This document shows, one piece after another, positions 3,452 to 32,851 of a stretch of DNA of 64,000 bases. The notes beneath the pieces are model-generated. The model did not search any database and had not been told where the DNA came from. It saw only the letters and a list, made by a program, of their open reading frames with translations. Origin of the DNA: Bacteroides sp. CAG:770 (lineage in GTDB: Bacteria; Bacteroidota; Bacteroidia; Bacteroidales; UBA932); contig FR890667.1 in NCBI GenBank assembly GCA_000435075.1, positions 36,642 to 100,641 on the forward strand. The letters run 5' to 3'. Position numbers and translations under genes: made by a program. The stretch's first letter is position 1; the number at the start of each line of letters is the position of its first letter.

Positions 3452-4741
3452 ATGAGTTTGAAGTTAATGGAATTCCTTGTTTACTTGTGTTCCGGCATGA
3501 TTTGTCTTGTGCTGGGAATGGTCCTCATTGTTGTCAGGACAAGGGAAAACAATGGATCCCACAACTTCAGATTTGTATTGAGAAGCATTGCATTTGCCGC
3601 TTTTCTGGATGTGCTTTTTGATGTGGTCGTCATTTATCTCCAGTGGCTCAAGGTCGATTACGTAGTAGCAAACCACTTCTTTGCGCCGCTCATAATGTAT
3701 AGCCAGATTTTCTTGGGAGTGGGAGCTATGCTGAAACTCTTCAGATCTGAGAAGGTCAATCTCCGCAGTATGTTGCTGCTTGTTTCTCCAGTATTTGTTC
3801 TGACAGTCCTATATATATTGGCATTCTTACGGGAGACTGATTCGATTACATTGGCCTCATATGAGGAATTTATCAAGTTGGGTTCTGCAAATTTCTTGTC
3901 CGGAACTTTGCTTGTCTGCCTTCTGATAGAATTGCTGGTCGTCGGCTTTTGGCTATATCAGGAGATGTCGAGATATAACAGGCTTCTTGGCGACTATTAT
4001 ACTGACAACCATATTGAGGACGGGCACAAGGTCTATTCCATAATGCTTGCGTTTACCATCTATATAATAACGACATTCTTCTTCTTTTTTAGTGTAAACG
4101 CCGTTCACAGGCTGGTAATAATGAGCCTGAATACGGGCTTGTTCATTCTGTTTACTGTCGTACTGATAAACCTCCAGCATATCTTCAATCTCGTTTCGCC
4201 GGCATTCACCTACAACGAAGCGCCACACGAGAATAAGGATACATTTACAGTTGCAGGCGATGTCAATGATAGTGAAGATTTTATGGATTCGGATATGATT
4301 CCGGAACCGTCACCCATAGAAGAAACCGCATCTGATGTGCAGGAGCCTGCAGAAACTGATTCCGATACTGAAACACCGGACAGACGAAGAATTGACGAGA
4401 TTGTAAAACAATGGAGCGAAAGTCCGGATAAATTATATTTGACCGAAGGCATCACATTGTCAAGTGCTGCAGACAGCATGGGAGTCAGCCCGAGACTGCT
4501 CTCAGACTTTCTGAACAATATTTATGAGAAGAACTTCAATACTTGGATAAAGTCTCTCAGGGTAGAGGAAGTCAAGCGCCTGCTTCAGCAGACTGAGCCT
4601 AAGATGACATTGCTCGACATAGCTGCGCTTACAGGCTTTCCTGATGCATCTTCAATGTCGAAAGCATTCAAACTTTTTACAGGAGTGACACCTTCTGCAT
4701 ATCGCACATCGAATGGGGGGGGGACGAGTAATCGTTCATAA
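3452..4741 (+). CDS. 7-TM membrane domain fused to an AraC-type HTH: a membrane-embedded one-component transcriptional regulator
   Basis: Seven hydrophobic helices in the N-terminal ~270 aa, then an acidic linker (DVNDSEDFMDSD..ETDSDTE), then a C-terminal AraC/XylS HTH (LLDIAALTGFPDASSMSKAFKLFTGVTPSAYR). The start was moved to the internal ATG at 3452 because the 36 codons upstream look like non-coding AT-rich promoter sequence. Confidence 0.6.
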   Translation: MSLKLMEFLVYLCSGMICLVLGMVLIVVRTRENNGSHNFRFVLRSIAFAAFLDVLFDVVVIYLQWLKVDYVVANHFFAPLIMYSQIFLGVGAMLKLFRSEKVNLRSMLLLVSPVFVLTVLYILAFLRETDSITLASYEEFIKLGSANFLSGTLLVCLLIELLVVGFWLYQEMSRYNRLLGDYYTDNHIEDGHKVYSIMLAFTIYIITTFFFFFSVNAVHRLVIMSLNTGLFILFTVVLINLQHIFNLVSPAFTYNEAPHENKDTFTVAGDVNDSEDFMDSDMIPEPSPIEETASDVQEPAETDSDTETPDRRRIDEIVKQWSESPDKLYLTEGITLSSAADSMGVSPRLLSDFLNNIYEKNFNTWIKSLRVEEVKRLLQQTEPKMTLLDIAALTGFPDASSMSKAFKLFTGVTPSAYRTSNGGGTSNRS

Positions 4742-23343: not shown

Positions 23344-26193
23344 ATGAAATTCGGAAATTTGATTAAGTGTGCCGCGTGGATTGCCGCGTTGGCATCGGTT
23401 TTTGCTTGTGCAAAAGAAGTAGGTCCGGGCTATGAGGAAGGATTGCCTGTAACATCCATCAAGATGTCTATTTCAGCTCCCGGTCAGGATAAGATAGCCA
23501 TTTCCACCAAGGCTACTGAGGCTGTGGAATCTGCAGTAGAGCAGATTGCCATTTTCTTCTATAAGGCCAATGATGCTAATGCTATGCCTATAGTGTCTGA
23601 GATTACACCGACTTTCGCGTCTAATGTCGGATCGAACTATCAGTATAACATTGTCATTCCTGCGACGGATCTCGAGGAGATGCGCAGTGGAAAATGGTAT
23701 ATGTATGCAGTTGCGAACTATGGCAAGGGCTTCTTCCCTGTGGATATCAATGCTCTCAAGGGTTTGAACCGTAGTGAGTTCCTCGATTATTGCATCACCA
23801 AGCAGAACAATGCGTTGGATATTCTGGAGACCTCTGTGCTCATGAGCGGAAAGTATTGCGGAGCAAATACAGACAAGAAGTCTTACAAGACCTATGATGA
23901 GTGTGACGGTTCTTTGGATATCAAGCCTGGCGAGAACATACTTGATGGCATTATCCGTCTCAGACGTAGTGTGGCGAAGATTACTTTCAAGTTTGTGAAT
24001 GGTTCGCATACTATAGCGGGAACGACTACTACGGCCCACGTGACCTTCAAGCCTGAATCTTACGGACTTTATGAGTATTCCCGTTCATGCACATTGATGG
24101 AGCGTGATAATTGGAAAGATGACTTCCCTTACATGGGAGACACTAAGGTCAGCGAGGAGAACAGGTTCCATAACGGTAGTGATTTCCCTATTACCGGTAG
24201 CCAGTTCGTGTTCTATATGCCTGAGAATGTGCAGACTCGCAATGTGAAAGGAACTCCTGACAATGGGTGGACTTATTTCAATCGTGAGGAGCGCAATAGC
24301 GACGGCATGGAGAATCCTACTCAGAAACAGTATAATACGTTCAAATATGCTCCTAAGCACGGAACTTTTGTTGCCGTAAAAGGTACCATTTCGATACCTG
24401 AAGAGAATTACAGCGGTGATGTGACTTATTATATTCATCTCGGTAACTTCAAAAGGTCTGCCGATGACTTTACAGTAAGGCGTAACTATCACTATACTTA
24501 CACGATTACGGTCAATGGCGTGGATAATATTATCGCTGAGGCCAAGGCCGAGGATAGTGGTGAGATTCAGCCGGGTGCTGAGGGAAACATTACCCATACG
24601 ACTGATGCGTACCTCGATGTAAGACTTGATTCTCATTACGAGACTGTGTTGCTTAAGGTCGAGGCTGACGTTGATGCCAGTACTTATGCCGTCAGGGTCA
24701 ATTCTCCGTACACCAAAAATGTTATGGTGAAGAGTACAGATAAACCAGCTGATTTCGAAGCGAAGAAGAAGGATTTGGATTACGGCTGGATTCGTTTCGG
24801 TAAACCTGCTGCAAATAAAGGCTATCGCTCTTACCCTGGTGTGTCGAATACGACTGATGTATTCGGATTGATTGCTGATCTTCAGAGTGCAAATACGACT
24901 AAAACATATTGGAGCAAAGATACTTATAATGGAAAGGAGTATTACTACACCATAGCTTATGTGAATGAGTACTACTATGATGATAAGATGAATGCTGCCG
25001 GAGCAGATAAGACTGCTGTGCTTAAACAGTTCATCAATGCGGATGACCGTACCATGTCTGTAATTCTCGGTCCAAACGTATTTGAGAGTAAGGATGGTCA
25101 CAGTACATACACTGACTTGACCCACGGTTTCTTCAATATCTCCCAGCGTTCTATCAAGACATTCTATGACTTGTCTGTAGCGAATCCGTTCGGAATCGAG
25201 CAGGTCGAGGAGACGGCTGCGACAACTAATTATGGCGGAACTGGAACGGATTCTGATAATGGATATGCGAATATTCCAAATGTCTCTGGTAAGACATGGA
25301 GCACCTATGTTACCAATGGCTTCAATGGTAATATAGGAATGAGAACGACCGCTGCCGAGTATCAGTGTCTATTGAGAAATAGGGATGAGAATGGCAATGG
25401 CACCATAGAAGCTTCCGAGATTAAGTGGTATCTTCCAGCTGTGAATCAGTGTACATATTACTGGTTTGGAATGAACTCTCTTCCTGAGGATGCTCGAATT
25501 AAGATGGAACCAAGAAAAACAAATAATTATTGGAGTAGTACAAGTAGTTTTGCAACTTGGTGGGCAGCAGAGGGGTCGGCATATGGAGCAGCAGAAGGCA
25601 AATGTCAGGTTAGATGTGTAAGAAGTTTGAAATTATATAATGAGAAGGCATCAGAAGTTTCGAAATATAATCTAAATACTAGAATTGTTACTATGCTTGG
25701 TATGGATTCGCGAAGTGTTCGTGAGGCAGGTACTGTTATAGGAGAGTTTGAAAAGCATGAAAGGGGAACTATATCCGATGTTTTTGCATCATCGTTCCAG
25801 ATTGCTAAGAATAATTTAAAAACGACTAATATTTTAGGCAAACCGGTGGATAAAACTTTCACTAATGGGCAGATGCAGGAAGTTGTGGATGCGAACTCTG
25901 CAACATGTAGTGATTATTACGAGGATGCAAATGGTTCGGATAAGGGTAAATGGAGGGTTCCTAATGAGAAAGAGTTGACTCTTATTCTGAAATGGTTGCG
26001 AACTGATAGTAATTATGGCACAACAACAAATCTTAAGATGCTTGCTTCTCGGTCTTATTATCAAAGACATAATTCTAGTGATAATATAGTCTATTATATT
26101 GTCGGAGACAGCAATAAGGGTATGTTTATTACTACGAGTGATCAAACTCAACTTGGCTTCAAAGTCCGTTGTGTTCGAGATGTTGTCAAATGA
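23344..26193 (+). CDS. Large surface lipoprotein with a fimbrillin (Mfa/FimA)-like N-terminal region and two C-terminal Fib_succ_major (FISUMP)-like domains
   Basis: Lipoprotein signal MKFGNLIKCAAWIAALASVFAC. The N-terminal EAVESAVEQIAIFFYKANDA pattern is typical of Bacteroidales fimbrillins. Two domains end ...YWSSTSSFATWWAAEG...QVRCVRS and ...LGFKVRCVRDVVK, resembling the TIGR02145 domain terminus. The start was moved to 23344 from the longer ORF at 23266. Confidence 0.5.
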   Translation: MKFGNLIKCAAWIAALASVFACAKEVGPGYEEGLPVTSIKMSISAPGQDKIAISTKATEAVESAVEQIAIFFYKANDANAMPIVSEITPTFASNVGSNYQYNIVIPATDLEEMRSGKWYMYAVANYGKGFFPVDINALKGLNRSEFLDYCITKQNNALDILETSVLMSGKYCGANTDKKSYKTYDECDGSLDIKPGENILDGIIRLRRSVAKITFKFVNGSHTIAGTTTTAHVTFKPESYGLYEYSRSCTLMERDNWKDDFPYMGDTKVSEENRFHNGSDFPITGSQFVFYMPENVQTRNVKGTPDNGWTYFNREERNSDGMENPTQKQYNTFKYAPKHGTFVAVKGTISIPEENYSGDVTYYIHLGNFKRSADDFTVRRNYHYTYTITVNGVDNIIAEAKAEDSGEIQPGAEGNITHTTDAYLDVRLDSHYETVLLKVEADVDASTYAVRVNSPYTKNVMVKSTDKPADFEAKKKDLDYGWIRFGKPAANKGYRSYPGVSNTTDVFGLIADLQSANTTKTYWSKDTYNGKEYYYTIAYVNEYYYDDKMNAAGADKTAVLKQFINADDRTMSVILGPNVFESKDGHSTYTDLTHGFFNISQRSIKTFYDLSVANPFGIEQVEETAATTNYGGTGTDSDNGYANIPNVSGKTWSTYVTNGFNGNIGMRTTAAEYQCLLRNRDENGNGTIEASEIKWYLPAVNQCTYYWFGMNSLPEDARIKMEPRKTNNYWSSTSSFATWWAAEGSAYGAAEGKCQVRCVRSLKLYNEKASEVSKYNLNTRIVTMLGMDSRSVREAGTVIGEFEKHERGTISDVFASSFQIAKNNLKTTNILGKPVDKTFTNGQMQEVVDANSATCSDYYEDANGSDKGKWRVPNEKELTLILKWLRTDSNYGTTTNLKMLASRSYYQRHNSSDNIVYYIVGDSNKGMFITTSDQTQLGFKVRCVRDVVK

Positions 26194-26213
26194 TATTGAA
26201 AATTCTAATTAAT

Positions 26214-27431
26214 ATGAAGATGAAATTTATTTTAGTGCCGGTGCTGTTGGCATTGACATTCGGTGCAGCCGCACAGCCTCAGGTGAAGGTCAAGAGTGAC
26301 ACCACTGAGACGGTAACTTATGATGGAAACAAATTCCGTGTTCAGACCGCTCCTGCGCGTGCGAACTGGTTCATCGGTCTGCAGGGTGGTGGTCAGCTGA
26401 TTTTCGGTGACCACGACAAGCAGTGCAAGCTGGGTGACCGTATCGCTCCTGCTCTCGACATATATTTCGGTAAGTGGTTTACCCCGGTAGTAGGAGGTAG
26501 GGTGCGCTACAGTGGTCTCAGTTTTAAGGGCGCTACCCAGACTGATGTCCATTCTACCGGCAAGGAAGTTCCGGGAAAGGGTGGTCACGGCTATTGGCTG
26601 ACCAAGCAGAAGTTCAGATATGTGGAGTTCGCCGGTGACGTGATGTGCAATCTTTCCAATGCTTTCGGCGGTTATCGTCCTGACAGGTTCTACAGCGCCA
26701 TCCCATACGTGGGTCTCGGTGTAGGCCGTGTCACCCAGAACCCTAAGACAACTGAGCTCATGGGCCACATCGGTTATTTGAGTGCATTCCGTGTATGTGA
26801 TGCCGTAGATATCAATCTCGACCTCCGCACCGGTTATGTCAATGACCGTTTCGATGGCGAGGAAGGCGGCCGCTATGGTGAGGGTATTCTCGCTGCTACC
26901 ATTGGTGTTACCTATAAGTTCAAGCCACGTGGCTTCGGTCGCACCAAGACTGTTACCCGTGTCATTTCTTCTGAGTATGACGTCAGTGACTACCAGAGAG
27001 TTATCGATGAGACCAAGGCTGAGAACGAGCGTCTCATGAAGGAGGTAGAAGAGCTTCGCAATCTCCCAAGATGGGAAGAGGGCAAGACCAGGACTCTCGC
27101 ATATCCATACTACATTGTCTTCGAACTTGGCAAGTCTGATCTTCTCAAGGCATCCCGCGTGAACCTCGGTATGCTTGCAGAGATTATCAAGGCCAACAAC
27201 GTAGTCTATGTGATTACCGGCTATGCCGACGAGGGCACCGGCAGCAAGCGTCTCAACGAGAAGTTGAGTCAGGATCGTGCCAAGGCCGTATATGACTGCC
27301 TGGTCAACGAGTACGGTGTTCCAGCCTCTCTCCTCAAGACAGCAGCCAAGGGCGGTGTAGGCAACATGTTCTACGACGATCCAGCCCTCTCACGTGCAGC
27401 CATTGCTCTCTACGAGGGTGACAAGGAGTAA
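26214..27431 (+). CDS. OmpA-family outer membrane protein (N-terminal beta-rich domain, coiled-coil linker, C-terminal OmpA/peptidoglycan-binding domain)
   Basis: Signal peptide MKMKFILVPVLLALTFGAAAQ, a coiled coil around DETKAENERLMKEVEELRN, and a C-terminal OmpA-like block YVITGYADEGTGSKRLNEKLSQDRAKAV. Confidence 0.8.
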   Translation: MKMKFILVPVLLALTFGAAAQPQVKVKSDTTETVTYDGNKFRVQTAPARANWFIGLQGGGQLIFGDHDKQCKLGDRIAPALDIYFGKWFTPVVGGRVRYSGLSFKGATQTDVHSTGKEVPGKGGHGYWLTKQKFRYVEFAGDVMCNLSNAFGGYRPDRFYSAIPYVGLGVGRVTQNPKTTELMGHIGYLSAFRVCDAVDINLDLRTGYVNDRFDGEEGGRYGEGILAATIGVTYKFKPRGFGRTKTVTRVISSEYDVSDYQRVIDETKAENERLMKEVEELRNLPRWEEGKTRTLAYPYYIVFELGKSDLLKASRVNLGMLAEIIKANNVVYVITGYADEGTGSKRLNEKLSQDRAKAVYDCLVNEYGVPASLLKTAAKGGVGNMFYDDPALSRAAIALYEGDKE

Positions 27432-27497
27432 TCCGAAAAAACGACAATAATCGCAGGGCTATACGATTTCTGCCGAGTTCAGGGTACCCGTCATAAC

Positions 27498-27665
27498 CCA
27501 ATTCGAACATCGCAACAAGGTCTATATAAGTTTTCCATAATATAAGCCCAAAGCGAGTATCGAATAGGGTTCATACAAGGTTTACCAGTTATAATCCCAG
27601 TGCGAATATCGCAACAAGGTTCATACGAGGTGTTCCAACTGTAGCCTCAAATGCGATCCCCAATA
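27498..27665 (+). repeat. About 3.5 tandem degenerate copies of a 50-bp unit in the 3' region of the OmpA-family gene
   Basis: Units start at 27498 (ccaattcgaacatcgcaacaaggtctata), 27548 (ccaaagcgagtatcgaatagggttcatac), 27598 (ccagtgcgaatatcgcaacaaggttcatac) and about 27645 (partial). Confidence 0.7.
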
Positions 27666-27667
27666 AA

Positions 27668-27712
27668 AAGGGTGACTGTCAAGTCCAAAGACTTGCCAGC
27701 CACCCTTTTTTC
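27668..27712 (+). terminator. Rho-independent terminator after the OmpA-family gene and its repeat tract
   Basis: aagggtgactgtcaagtc-caaa-gacttgccagccaccctt followed by TTTTTT: an 18-bp stem with 2 mismatches. Confidence 0.7.
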
Positions 27713-27821
27713 ATATCCCCCAACTATTCAGACAAAGTAGAGCCTGTGTCAAGCCTGTGCCAATTTCCGCGCCATCATATGCAGTTTGTCCGGAGAAACC
27801 CATGTTCTCACGGACGTTTTC

Positions 27822-27990
27822 TGATTTCATCACCAATCGCAACTCCCACGTCTCTTCGCCTGTGCCACGCCAAACGTCACAACCCACGTTCCATTTTGTC
27901 CCGTCTAAAACGTTTTCCCAGAACAAAACCCATCAAAACCACCATTCCGTACCGCTAAACCGATTTATATGGGACAAAAACCTCAGTTTC
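27822..27990. repeat. Repeat family B, copy 1 (about 165 bp, non-coding)
   Basis: tgatttcatcaccaatcgcaactcc...ccgatttatatgg; about 95 percent identical to 28436-28600. Confidence 0.8.
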
Positions 27991-28277
27991 AGTATGGCCT
28001 AGAAATTATTAACTAGCATAGGTAACAATAAAAAAGAGGGGATAGAGTAGAGTGTCCTTACAAGGACACAGGGCTAAGTCTCAAAACCGCTGACACCCTT
28101 AATATCTACGATAGTGTCCTTTCACCCTTTCAATCCTGCCGAAGCGAAGCCGTCTGTACGCCTTCACCCAAACAAGCCTGAAAACCTCCACTCTAATGGA
28201 GATTTTTACTAATGTGGAATATTGTCTTCTTTTCATTATGATATTTATCGTTAAGTGTGAAAGACAAATTCTCCTAG

Positions 28278-28436
28278 TTCAAGCACCTCCCCTCTTAGAC
28301 GACAAAAGCAGGTATCCACTTAAGGGATAGATACCTGCCTTGCTTTCTTAACGATGTCACAATCATAATGACATTGCAAATATACGAATTATTTTGAATT
28401 AACGATGCCTAGAATGACATATTTTGAAATTGTGCT
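28278..28436. repeat. Repeat family A, copy 1 (about 160 bp, contains an imperfect hairpin gcaggtatcc-acttaag-ggatagatacctgc)
   Basis: gttcaagcacctcccctcttagacgacaaaagcaggtatccacttaagggatagatacctgccttgctttc...gacattgcaaatatacgaattattttgaattaacgatgc; about 90 percent identical to 28807-28979. It runs straight into B copy 2. Confidence 0.8.
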
Positions 28437-28600
28437 GATTTCATCACCAATCGCAACTCCAACGCCTCTTCGCCTGTCGCCACGCCAAACGTCACAACCC
28501 ACGTTCCATTTTGTCCCGTCTAAAACGTTTTCCCAGAACAAAACCCATCAAACCCACCATTCCGTACCGCTAAACCGATTTATATGGAACAAAACCCTAC
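28436..28600. repeat. Repeat family B, copy 2
   Basis: Direct repeat of 27822-27990. A 1-bp indel relative to copy 1 (gtgcc versus gtcgcc) shifts the reading frame, so the repeat is not protein-coding. Confidence 0.8.
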
Positions 28601-28806
28601 GCCCTGCCTTTTTCCGGACAAAACGTACTTGGTCTTGCTACCGAACTGACACACATTAATCATGAAAACAAATGGCCATAGAAAAACGGTGAAAAATAAC
28701 GCGGTTTTTTACACCGTTTGTCGCAAAATGATAATCGGTGTAAAAAAAGCCTCATTTTTACACCAAATATCCCAAGGCCCAGCATCGACATAGCTGAGGC
28801 CGTCCA

Positions 28807-28979
28807 AGTTCAAGCACCTTCCCCTCTATACGACAAAAGCAGGTATCCATTTAAGGGATAGATACCTGCCTTGCTTTCCTCAAGAATGTCATAATTACAT
28901 GACATTGCAAATATACGAATTATTTTGAATTAACGATGCTCAGATTGTCATATTTTGAAAAAGTGCAAATTCCATCACC
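28807..28979. repeat. Repeat family A, copy 2, followed by a degenerate start of a B unit
   Basis: gttcaagcaccttcccctctatacgacaaaagcaggtatccatttaagggatagatacctgcc...cattgcaaatatacgaattattttgaattaacgatgc, then aattccatcaccacc. Confidence 0.8.
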
Positions 28980-29091
28980 ACCTTTCTCCATTTGACTTCT
29001 CCCATTTCTGGTTTGCCATCTCACTGACACAACAAAAGCAGGGCTCATCACCCTGCCTCTCATATATCTGTCTGTCATTGACCTAATAATC

Positions 29092-29991
29092 TTAGAAAAC
29101 TTCGATCGTGTAGCTGGCACGGAACGACTGGCCCGGGGCAACGGCATTGACAAGATCCTTTTCGGAGAACTCTCCGGTGAAACCGGCTCTGTCGCAGCGG
29201 CCGTACCACGGCTCGATGCAGACAAACGGAGCATTGAGTCCGGCAGGCGACCACAGGCCAAGCGCCGGTGTGTTGAACTCCAATGAAACGAGCGGCTCAC
29301 CCTCGCACGACTCCAGAACCACCTTCGAAACCTGTTGATTGTCAATGATAAAGGCGTCATGGTCGAATGTCGTTGTCTTCAGCGGAAGCCTTCCGTCAGG
29401 AGTCTGCAACTCGTGGACATGCTCCGTATCCGCACAACCTTTCTCTGAAATCAGCAAATACTTCAGCGACTCCAGCGGCTTCGTCTCGCCATTCTCGCCC
29501 TGCTTATACAGCCTGAAAGCGCCCCGCTCCTCAGTATCGGGATTGAAATCCGGAAAATAGAACGCCGGATGAGCGCCAATCTGGAAATACATCGTCTTGT
29601 CATCGTCATTGCAAACCTCCCACATCACCTGTATCTTATTGCCGTTCAGCTTGTAACCGATTCTCAATGTAAATGCGTAAGGGTATTTTGCCAATGTCTC
29701 AGCATCAGACTGGAGCTCGTACCACAATGTGTTCTCGTCAGACGAAATCAGATGGAAATCCATGTCCCTGGCAAATCCATGCTGGCCAAGTGTATATTCT
29801 TTTCCATCGATTCTATATTTCTTTTCCCACAAACTGCCTACGATAGGGAACAGAACCGGTGCGTGCCTTTTCCAGAATGCAGGGTCCGCCTGCCAGATGA
29901 ATTCTCTGCCGGAATGGTCTCTGATGCTACAGAGTTCGGCTCCGTGTCTGTCAACCTTAATCGACAAAATGTCGTTCTTCAGTGTCTTCAT
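29092..29991 (-). CDS. Aldose 1-epimerase (galactose mutarotase-like) family protein
   Basis: 299 aa; MKTLKNDILSIKVDRHGAELCSIRD...FIWQADPAFWKRHAPVLFPIVG is typical of the YihR/LacX-type aldose epimerase fold. Confidence 0.7.
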   Translation of the reverse strand: MKTLKNDILSIKVDRHGAELCSIRDHSGREFIWQADPAFWKRHAPVLFPIVGSLWEKKYRIDGKEYTLGQHGFARDMDFHLISSDENTLWYELQSDAETLAKYPYAFTLRIGYKLNGNKIQVMWEVCNDDDKTMYFQIGAHPAFYFPDFNPDTEERGAFRLYKQGENGETKPLESLKYLLISEKGCADTEHVHELQTPDGRLPLKTTTFDHDAFIIDNQQVSKVVLESCEGEPLVSLEFNTPALGLWSPAGLNAPFVCIEPWYGRCDRAGFTGEFSEKDLVNAVAPGQSFRASYTIEVF

Positions 29992-30058: not shown

Positions 30059-30359
30059 ATAAATTTTTCGTGCTATTGTATCGTTTTGTAAGGAAAACAT
30101 GACACGTAACTCGATTTTTGCGTTCTTCATTGACCTTTTCCGATAATTTCGTAAATTGGGATCAAATATGTAAGCGTTAAAAAATAAGTTGGTAAAGATT
30201 TGTGAAGAATTTTCGAGGATAGACCTGTTTTCGAAGAAGGAGTGTACTGGACGCACACGACTGATGAGAAGGGAAATGTAGACCGAAAAGGCGAACAAAG
30301 ATTACCAAGCTATTTTTTGAAGGTTGCTAAATGGTTTATCAGAAATAATATACGGAAAA

Positions 30360-32342: not shown

Positions 32343-32851
32343 CGGCTGGCCGGTTGTTCCAAGCAGGCGGCTAAGCTCGGCCAAAGTCGGTGACCCGCCT
32401 GCTTTTCAACATTTGGAATAAATGCCTCAGCAGCGGCTACACTCAGTCAAAGTCAATGGTCCGCCTGCAAGAACCACCAATAGGGGCTCCGTCGGGATTT
32501 TCACCTGAAATGTCCGCCAATCTTGCCCAGATCAGGGGAGAACCTTGTGTCCCGCTGTTATGTATTTACTTGTTTTCACACCCCGTAAGCGTCTCCGGAG
32601 TTGCGTCTTGACGCGTTGCCCGCTGTTCCGTACTTTTGCTTTCCGTCGGGATGGTGCCACATTGATTTTTGTAACAACTTGATTTGTAGGTAGTTGTAAA
32701 ATCGCGTGTGGATTAGTGCCAAAAAAAAACATCGGAAATCCACGCTTAAAATAAATGACACCTGATTGTCAATGAATTACAAAGGTGGCCGTGGCGTCGT
32801 CCCGCCCTGGGACTGTCAATGTCATGCGGGCGTGGTCAGGTACGAAACAGA

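Follow-up and report, generated by a model that had tools for sequence, protein, structure and literature searches.

Long direct repeats occur at several type I toxin-antitoxin (TA) loci, among them ldr/rdl (the LDR repeats), ibs/sib and hok/sok of E. coli and aapA/IsoA of H. pylori. Type III systems such as ToxIN consist of tandem 36-nt antitoxin repeats, a terminator and an endoribonuclease toxin of ~170 aa. Small proteins are also encoded by dual-function small RNAs (sRNAs) such as SgrS/SgrT, RNAIII/hld and SR1/SR1P, and the repY/repZ genes of IncI-alpha and IncB plasmids control replication through a pseudoknot and an antisense Inc RNA. Bacteroidota are not known to possess Hfq or ProQ or to use Shine-Dalgarno initiation. 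Post-transcriptional control in this phylum is poorly charted, and the small proteins of gut bacteria are mostly uncharacterised. In Bacteroides, FopS and GibS are paralogous multi-copy sRNA families; in FopS, which is deposited in Rfam, a single-stranded 5′ seed precedes the terminator, and there is no associated open reading frame (ORF) (PMC11697453). Here, we analyse a repeat island between an OmpA-family gene and an aldose 1-epimerase gene in a 64,000-nt stretch of contig FR890667.1 from Bacteroides sp. CAG:770. This stretch is called the window, and coordinates without a contig name refer to it. Our best guess is that the unit repeated in this island is a self-contained sRNA/small-protein module resembling a TA system.

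The repeat island as a probable minus-strand array

Repeat finding and BLAST self-comparison confirmed two repeat families, A and B, each present twice at the places where a first-pass annotation of the window had put them. The B copies are 96% identical, and the A copies (A1, 28272-28449, vs. A2, 28803-28980; 88%) fall slightly short of the 90-95% given there. With E values from 1e-56 to 1e-73, these matches lie far above chance expectation for such lengths. Also borne out were a single 1-nt indel between the B copies, the direct junction of A1 with B2, a decayed copy of the B end that precedes A2 in minus-strand sense (GGTGATGGAAT vs. GGTGATGAAAT), and all three named hairpins, namely the 3′ hairpin of Table 1, the A-unit hairpin (28308-28338 and 28839-28869) and a 35-nt inverted pair in Y, the sequence downstream of A2. 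BLAST and a family hidden Markov model (HMM) search detected no further copies of A or B in the window, and no tRNA gene was found in it. The gene context of the window is that of Bacteroidota and includes SusD and DUF4954 genes.

Perfect matches to the Bacteroidota -7 consensus TAnnTTTG occur only twice in the island. Both read TATATTTG and belong to the minus strand, where A1 and A2 have one each. No such box was seen on the island's plus strand, and the only RNA element complementary to the mRNA is the loop of the co-directional leader described below. A sigma-70 promoter/terminator scan was uninformative for Bacteroidota promoters. The GC skew on the plus strand is -0.2 to -0.36, the island being C-rich there. 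Promoters, terminators, GC skew and a conserved ORF thus agree on the minus strand as the sense strand, against the plus-strand reading of the first-pass annotation. On balance, the island is probably a strain-variable, minus-strand tandem array of small transcription units with one complete and one orphan copy of a family.

The complete copy consists of A1 and the adjoining sequence X, which together form one conserved unit of ~355 nt (28384->28030). Conservation between non-syntenic loci begins at the -7 box and ends at a U-tract (compared over 28396->28025, with the end CUCUAUCCCCUCUUUUUU). Each A unit contains, in minus-strand order, a promoter, a 5′ stem-loop (P1), a strong hairpin (T1; GCAGGUAUC-N13-GAUACCUGC followed by UUUUG) and a box AGAGGGGA(A)GGUGCUUGAAC. 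In the complete unit, this box (GAGGGGAGG) and a UCCCCUC stretch of the 3′ end form a long-range helix, P3 (GAGGGGA/UCCCCUC), which is followed by the U-tract. A1+X folds with a z-score of -6.0. The -7 box is kept as TAnnTTTG in nearly all homologues; that of locus L049 reads TATCTTCG. The sequence of P1 differs between A2 and A1 and from other lineages, the hairpin itself being always retained. In T1, 7 of 12 stem pairs are changed on both sides, and the U-rich tract is retained in nearly all lineages. The 3′ hairpin has compensatory variants elsewhere, GUGCC..GGCAC and GUGUCCG..CGGACAC.

X contains an ORF of 45 codons. In 19 copies, which represent 14 unique sequences, the frame is open and has a length of exactly 138 nt, with a ratio of non-synonymous to synonymous polymorphism (pN/pS) of mostly 0.3-0.5 and with many synonymous and R/K changes; the sequence directly upstream of the AUG is hypervariable. 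The AUG (28234-28236) is located in the A/U-rich loop of an enclosing stem, which was found in 13 of 15 sequences (the exceptions are L012 and L062) and whose sequence is lineage-specific, e.g., GUCUGUUUUCCUU/AAGGAAAAGAC in L055. Seventeen of the 45 residues are basic, and the protein has no transmembrane stretch, which argues against a membrane peptide. The first-pass annotation had regarded the island as purely non-coding and the stretch between B1 and A1 as spacer. It is this stretch that holds the conserved ORF, in one transcription unit with A1. In the contigs L001-L005 (L004, GCA_900520835.1, carries the long allele described below), automatic gene prediction places a spurious 31-aa ORF over the A2 leader (28810-28905, minus strand) and leaves the conserved 45-aa ORF of the long-allele contig uncalled.

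Table 1. Features of the island and its flanks, in window order
Feature	Position	Strand	Basis or remark
OmpA-family gene	26169-27431	+	island flank
Bidirectional terminator hairpin, common to the OmpA-family gene and the array	27665-27710	.	21-nt arms, 90% complementary
B1, second copy of the locus-specific spacer	27821-27983	-	repeat comparison
UCCCCUCUU + U-tract: 3′ strand of P3, presumed terminator T2, unit end	28030-28042	-	cross-locus conservation ends here
3′ hairpin GUGUCCUUGUAAGGACAC	28050-28067	-	fold; perfect hairpin of the first-pass annotation
UUAAGGG: stop codon UAA + GGG, complementary to T1 loop	28096-28102	-	loop/stop comparison
ORF X, 45 aa, MKRRQYSTLVKISIRVEVFRLVWVKAYRRLRFGRIERVKGHYRRY, 17 basic residues	28099-28236	-	conserved open frame
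Intra-ORF hairpin CUCCAUUAGAGUGGAG (codons for ISIRVE)	28186-28201	-	93% paired
AUG-enclosing stem: GAAUUUGUCUUU in the 5′ untranslated region (UTR; 28260-28271) with AAGAAGACAAUAUUC in codons 3-7 (28217-28231)	28217-28271	-	fold + covariation
Box AAGAGGGGAGG, 5′ strand of long-range closing helix P3	28286-28296	-	flanking pairs covary (AA..UU vs CC..GG)
A1 hairpin T1 + U-tract	28302-28338	-	loop CCCUUAA (28320-28326) complementary to ORF stop-codon region
A1 5′ stem-loop P1	28354-28374	-	fold + homologue comparison
A1 promoter -7 box TATATTTG	28377-28384	-	complete member begins here; family HMM 28384->28030, score 334
B2, locus-specific spacer repeat	28435-28598	-	two ~50-nt sub-repeats (UUUUGUYC-N6-AAAWCGNUUUAG-CGG)
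Y	28599-28802	-	unrelated to X; long imperfect hairpin (arms 28688-28722 / 28730-28764), terminator-like U runs
A2 box AGAGGGGAAGGUGCUUGAAC, end of orphan leader	28808-28827	-	family HMM limit
A2 hairpin T1 (GCAGGUAUC...GAUACCUGC) + UUUUGU, loop CCCUUAA	28833-28869	-	intrinsic-terminator-like
A2 5′ stem-loop P1 (AAUGUCAUG-UAAU-UAUGACAUU)	28885-28906	-	fold prediction
A2 promoter -7 box TATATTTG	28908-28915	-	perfect TAnnTTTG match
Aldose 1-epimerase gene	29092-29991	-	island flank

A2 is matched by the family HMM over the leader only (model positions 1-117, 28915->28799). The adjoining Y is unrelated to X, contains neither a 3′ CCCCUC box nor a sequence complementary to the T1 loop, and in four relatives a 1-nt indel interrupts its 43-aa ORF, on which ground we rejected a coding role. 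A2 is thus an orphan leader. Y is probably non-coding; the fold of A2+Y has a z-score of -6.1. Orphan leaders are also present in L014, L040 and L041.

For B, a coding role was rejected because the ORFs are frame-shifted between the copies and changes in L015 are non-conservative; here and for the ORF in Y, the view that these small frames are not conserved held good. B was likewise rejected as a structured RNA (fold z-scores of B1, -0.03 and -0.43 on the two strands), and no canonical promoter was found in it. A scan of metagenomes detected B only at the OmpA/epimerase locus of close relatives, save one weaker B-like tandem in L017. This is a weak tandem pair of B-like sub-repeats (L017 9258-9394; 76-83% identity to B) ~7 kb from the array, and a motif search gave no counterpart in the window. 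B is a duplicated flank and a recombination substrate.

Contigs whose encoded epimerase is the identical one fall into two classes: some have the long allele, which does not differ from the window, and others a short one, A2-Y-B. Related species have A1-X-B, A1-Y-B, A1-X-B-A2-X-B, tandem B copies or an insertion sequence (IS). The single B of L002 is a B2/B1 chimera, and L015 has A1 joined to the sequence found upstream of A2. The B repeat was duplicated together with a unit, and the alleles arise by homologous recombination, either of B copies with each other or of A copies with each other. As this explains all of them, no dedicated recombinase is needed. The island content is indeed present or absent between strains, as expected for the hotspot suggested in the first-pass annotation. 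The IS mentioned above encodes a 612-aa transposase-like protein and is inserted in a B unit of the array on a human-gut metagenome contig (L025 2295-4133).

Further elements were noted around the array. The 3′ UTR of the OmpA-family gene contains, ahead of the bidirectional terminator, three degenerate tandem repeats of ~50 nt (…CGAAYATCGCAACAAGGTYYATA…TTCCA; 27470-27660, plus strand). Between the epimerase and DUF4954 genes lies a divergent promoter region (30167-30333) that recurs non-syntenically at 83-91% identity (L012 5940-5994; L025 890-1053), one copy being inserted in the OmpA 3′ UTR of L025. A second conserved element of ~180 nt (32631-32810, plus strand) begins at a perfect TACTTTTG -7 box and forms a long stem and a hairpin GCGUGUGGAUU…AAUCCACGC (fold z-score, -3.35). 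It has no Rfam match and is ~80% identical to copies beside or within A arrays of other species (L012 6343-6524; L040 ~4470-4700). It is probably another unannotated sRNA gene that accompanies A arrays.

Conservation of the unit and its loop/stop complementarity

When a 20-mer from T1 was scanned across one genome per species, seven genuine loci were recovered, all on contigs of ~47% GC with a Bacteroidales-like look. Two loci, L012 and L015, come from contigs 11 and 20 of one metagenome-assembled genome (CAKUXR01), which indicates several unit copies per genome. The X protein has 16 close clusters in a large protein collection, all of them unnamed at the source. A profile search of 1.84 billion protein representatives (E < 1e-3; clusters at 50% identity) retrieved 69 distant clusters with the family consensus M+KRT..V.ISI.VE[VI]VRLV+V+AYKR[VI]R.GK[VIL]E+V+SHYRRY. 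Where such a "protein" is longer, its frame has been mis-called and runs through the leader, KAGIYPLN being translated T1 and RGEVL the translated box.

Ten distant members, examined as DNA (L051-L065, 45-57% GC), share one layout, which spans 351-366 nt with the -7 box and the U-tract as its ends: TAnnTTTG, P1, T1 with a U-tract, a GAGGGGAGGU box, the AUG-enclosing stem, an ORF of 43-48 codons, the 3′ hairpin, and CUAUCCCCUC(GG) followed by U's. In a 13-sequence alignment (A4), RNAalifold revealed compensatory changes at 20 of 54 pairs. For T1, P3 and the intra-ORF hairpin together, 95% of the alignment cells pair, as compared to ~50% when the partners are slid, and 11 pairs are changed on both sides; none of 500 shuffles reached the observed values. 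Of the structured non-coding RNA family proposed in the first-pass annotation, the part that stands concerns the A units, which are multi-copy structured RNA modules at other loci of the same genome and of others; B shows no RNA-structure signal. A is not unique to this spot, whereas B essentially is; B is no dispersed family.

The stop codon and the G's that follow it, ~220 nt downstream of the T1 loop, show 6-9 nt of complementarity to this loop. With TAA as the stop codon, the loop CCCUUAA faces UUAAGGG. With TAG, loop and stop region read CCUCUAA/UUAGAGG, UCCCUAAA/UUUAGGGA or UGCCUCUAA/UUAGAGGUA, and with TGA, GCCUCAA/UUGAGGU. Across ten lineages, the complementarity of loops with their own stop regions sums to 60 vs. 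40.1 +/- 3.8 with permuted partners (P ~1e-5). That the loop tracks the identity of the stop codon argues that the stop must stay a stop and, hence, that the ORF is translated. It likewise points to a long-range or trans RNA contact.

A tRNA-Leu(CAA) gene lies upstream of the units, in the same orientation, in at least 8 loci of other species, at a distance of 60-150 nt or 1.5-2 kb. In L040 (3685-3743/5150-5209) and L041 (3685-3743/4422-4481), a 60-bp direct repeat brackets the A array. It consists of the last 6 nt of tRNA-Leu(CAA) and its terminator, and a decayed T-arm adjoins the distal copy; the repeat resembles an attachment (att) site, yet the bracketed array of 0.7-1.4 kb contains no integrase. 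Some A or A-X contigs (L009, L013 and L014) are filed in Butyricicoccaceae or Oscillibacter (Firmicutes) bins. We rejected transfer across phyla, as these contigs have ~47% GC and neighbours that are Bacteroidales-like by eye, and two of them, L013 and L014, also have this same tRNA-Leu(CAA) gene; mis-binning is the probable explanation.

Database searches did not connect the unit to a described family. Rfam 15 yielded nothing at gathering score in the whole window, including FopS, GibS, Bacteroides-1/2 and Bacteroidales-1, and only chance-level matches between 26000 and 31000 at E up to 10 (best, 22.8 bits vs. a gathering score of 50); the Rfam check suggested in the first-pass annotation thus gave no credible match for the units. 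Pfam, NCBIfam and PADLOC contain no family for the 45-aa protein, even at E up to 10. Viral contigs scanned with 20-24-mers of A and B and with X protein patterns gave no matches, and phage and plasmid collections, searched as DNA and protein, gave only a weak 26-aa match to an ORF of an Stx phage. The X protein matches PHROG family phrog_21154 (a phage protein of unknown function, ~47 aa) with E = 6e-7 over residues 20-45 only, and the X family shares the motif V.V+.Y.R[LI]RFG.[IL]E.V+.H[YF]R.Y with the 44-aa Stx-phage ORF and RFG..E.V..H[YF]R.Y with both phrog_21154 and that ORF. The viral and phage searches turned up no closer phage relative. A full-text literature search found no paper containing SHYRRY or GHYRRY. 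The Bacteroidota gene family is apparently undescribed. We also considered ribosomal protein bL38 of Bacteroidia, whose single-copy core gene follows those of bL28 and bL33 in an operon of three genes (PMC11851116). This identity was rejected, as the gene neighbourhoods differ and the X family is multi-copy and strain-variable, with orphans and decayed copies.

A proposed module and its alternatives

In the module that we propose, most transcripts would end at T1 and give a leader sRNA of ~75 nt, and read-through of T1 would yield an mRNA of ~340 nt closed by P3 and T2. The AUG stem, P3 and the loop-to-stop contact would keep this mRNA compact and translationally quiet. Leader RNAs, including those of orphans, may bind in cis, in trans or both to the region of the stop codon and would in this way set the output of the small protein, a logic that would resemble a TA or dual-function-RNA module. 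A bolder version is a Bacteroidota-wide regulatory or addiction module. Here, one promoter would serve both a terminated leader sRNA and a read-through mRNA for a basic 45-aa protein, and the terminator loop would pair with the stop codon in cis and, from orphans, in trans; this contact would control translation termination, mRNA fate or both. We put this version forward tentatively, as a possibility of fairly low probability.

Several observations weigh against the proposal. The transcription start site, termination at T1 and translation are all deduced from sequence. No antisense promoter was found, the X protein is non-hydrophobic, unlike classical type I toxins, and its AlphaFold2 model (10-sequence alignment) is a single helix with a predicted local distance difference test score of 75, which is uninformative. 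The loop/stop complementarity is missing in the two most divergent members, L062 and L058; in L064, the stop is relocated and the complementary site has moved along, but it is only adjacent to the stop. Six of the 16 close protein clusters are frameshifted or truncated, which indicates that some copies are decaying. A tblastn search of phages and plasmids with the consensus returned nothing, and the similarity to phrog_21154 is remote. Finally, the two sub-repeats of B are left unexplained.

Among the alternatives, the one that survives best regards A as a purely cis-acting transcription attenuator of the small-protein gene, with no trans role as an sRNA and with orphan A units as decaying remnants. 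A terminator hairpin with a U-tract does lie between promoter and ORF in almost all lineages (it is weak in L059), the -7 box scan gave no canonical promoter of X's own, and the A2-Y unit appears degenerate. However, a plain attenuator has no need of a conserved T1 loop complementary to a distant downstream site. Neither an alternative antiterminator pairing nor a match to a ligand-binding family in Rfam was identified. Moreover, orphans recur in several species, and they keep T1 while P1 and the flanks diverge, A1 and A2 being 88% identical as a whole but differing in T1 only once, in the loop. We therefore consider an exclusively cis-acting leader unlikely.

Still less probable is the view that the unit, at ~340 nt, acts as a structured RNA only and codes for nothing, with the 45-codon frame as a by-product of RNA constraints. 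The very strong fold z-score and the extensive covariation would fit such an RNA, as would unusually conserved synonymous sites in the middle of the ORF, the frameshifts in several database copies, and a distribution of variable columns over the codon positions of just 15/8/19. Yet the frame stays open at 43-48 codons among lineages that share only ~50% of the protein sequence, and its start is conserved next to hypervariable upstream sequence. The stop is always a stop (TAA, TAG or TGA), with the pairing partner compensating. Several codons occur in three synonymous variants (GTG/GTA/GTT), R/K exchanges predominate at the pN/pS given above, and a protein profile retrieves 69 clusters with one common motif.

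Very improbable is a third reading, akin to the MITE-like (miniature inverted-repeat transposable element) origin weighed in the first-pass annotation, that a small mobile or integrative element or hotspot islet left the units behind as relics, with repeats that reflect repeated insertion and excision rather than function: the strain-variable content, the association with tRNA-Leu(CAA), the 60-bp direct repeat of tRNA 3′ end and terminator around the L040/L041 array with its decayed T-arm at the distal copy, and the IS in the L025 array speak for it, but the units have no terminal inverted repeats (those found are internal hairpins), short target-site duplications, integrase or transposase, the conserved block runs from promoter -7 box to terminator U-tract in all loci, its internal architecture bears compensatory changes and the mark of purifying selection over deep divergence, recombination between B or A copies explains the alleles, and the units are missing from the viral, phage and plasmid collections searched.

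We therefore return to the sRNA/small-protein module as the preferred reading. Many gut and environmental Bacteroidota lineages share a covariation-supported RNA architecture around a conserved 45-aa protein that is missing from Rfam, Pfam and NCBIfam. Two terminators, a start-codon-enclosing stem and a hairpin loop that tracks stop identity offer testable features. "Non-coding repeat islands" of Bacteroidales assemblies conceal genuine genes that gene callers have overlooked.

Comparison with described systems

Like type I TA loci, the array consists of intergenic tandem repeats of ~500-600 bp, each with a tiny ORF (<60 aa), and is present in several copies per genome, decayed ones included. 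The mRNA is highly structured, with a 5′-3′ long-distance helix and a predicted occluded start codon, and an RNA element is complementary to it. In contrast to type I loci, there is no antisense promoter, no overlapping antisense gene, and no antisense or divergent sRNA antitoxin with its own promoter. The candidate regulator is instead a co-directional leader from the same promoter, which targets the stop codon and not the start region. Type I toxins are hydrophobic membrane peptides, toxic when over-expressed; the X protein, a putative toxin, is very basic and, judged by its sequence, not a transmembrane peptide.

With type III systems, the unit shares the order of promoter, structured RNA, intrinsic terminator and protein gene, in which read-through would set the RNA-to-protein ratio. 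It differs from them in that the leader lacks tandem repeats, the protein has 45 aa and no PADLOC match, and the RNA is complementary to the mRNA rather than a known protein binder. FopS and GibS are likewise multi-copy sRNA genes of Bacteroidales with sigma-ABfr-type promoters and Rho-independent terminators; unlike FopS, A combines a 5′ stem-loop with a terminator loop of conserved sequence, and a small-protein mRNA follows it.

As in SgrS/SgrT, RNAIII/hld and SR1/SR1P, a structured, conserved RNA and a small ORF share one short transcript; two terminators and a closing helix, the restriction of the family to Bacteroidota and the lack of known trans targets set the unit apart. A parallel to the loop/stop complementarity is seen in repY/repZ, where a short ORF ends at a site bound by the loop of a hairpin far upstream, which couples translation termination to a long-range contact. 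Here, by contrast, the transcript ends after the ORF and contains no downstream gene to activate, no antisense Inc RNA is present, and the units are chromosomal and multi-copy.

The coupling of a terminator loop to the stop codon is an unusual feature among small-protein and dual-function RNA modules that resemble TA systems. If the contact is functional, it would represent an unusual coupling of an sRNA to translation termination, and the unit could be the first TA-like RNA module described for the phylum. Should the Bacteroidota-wide module outlined above prove true, it would be a TA-like system outside all described types.

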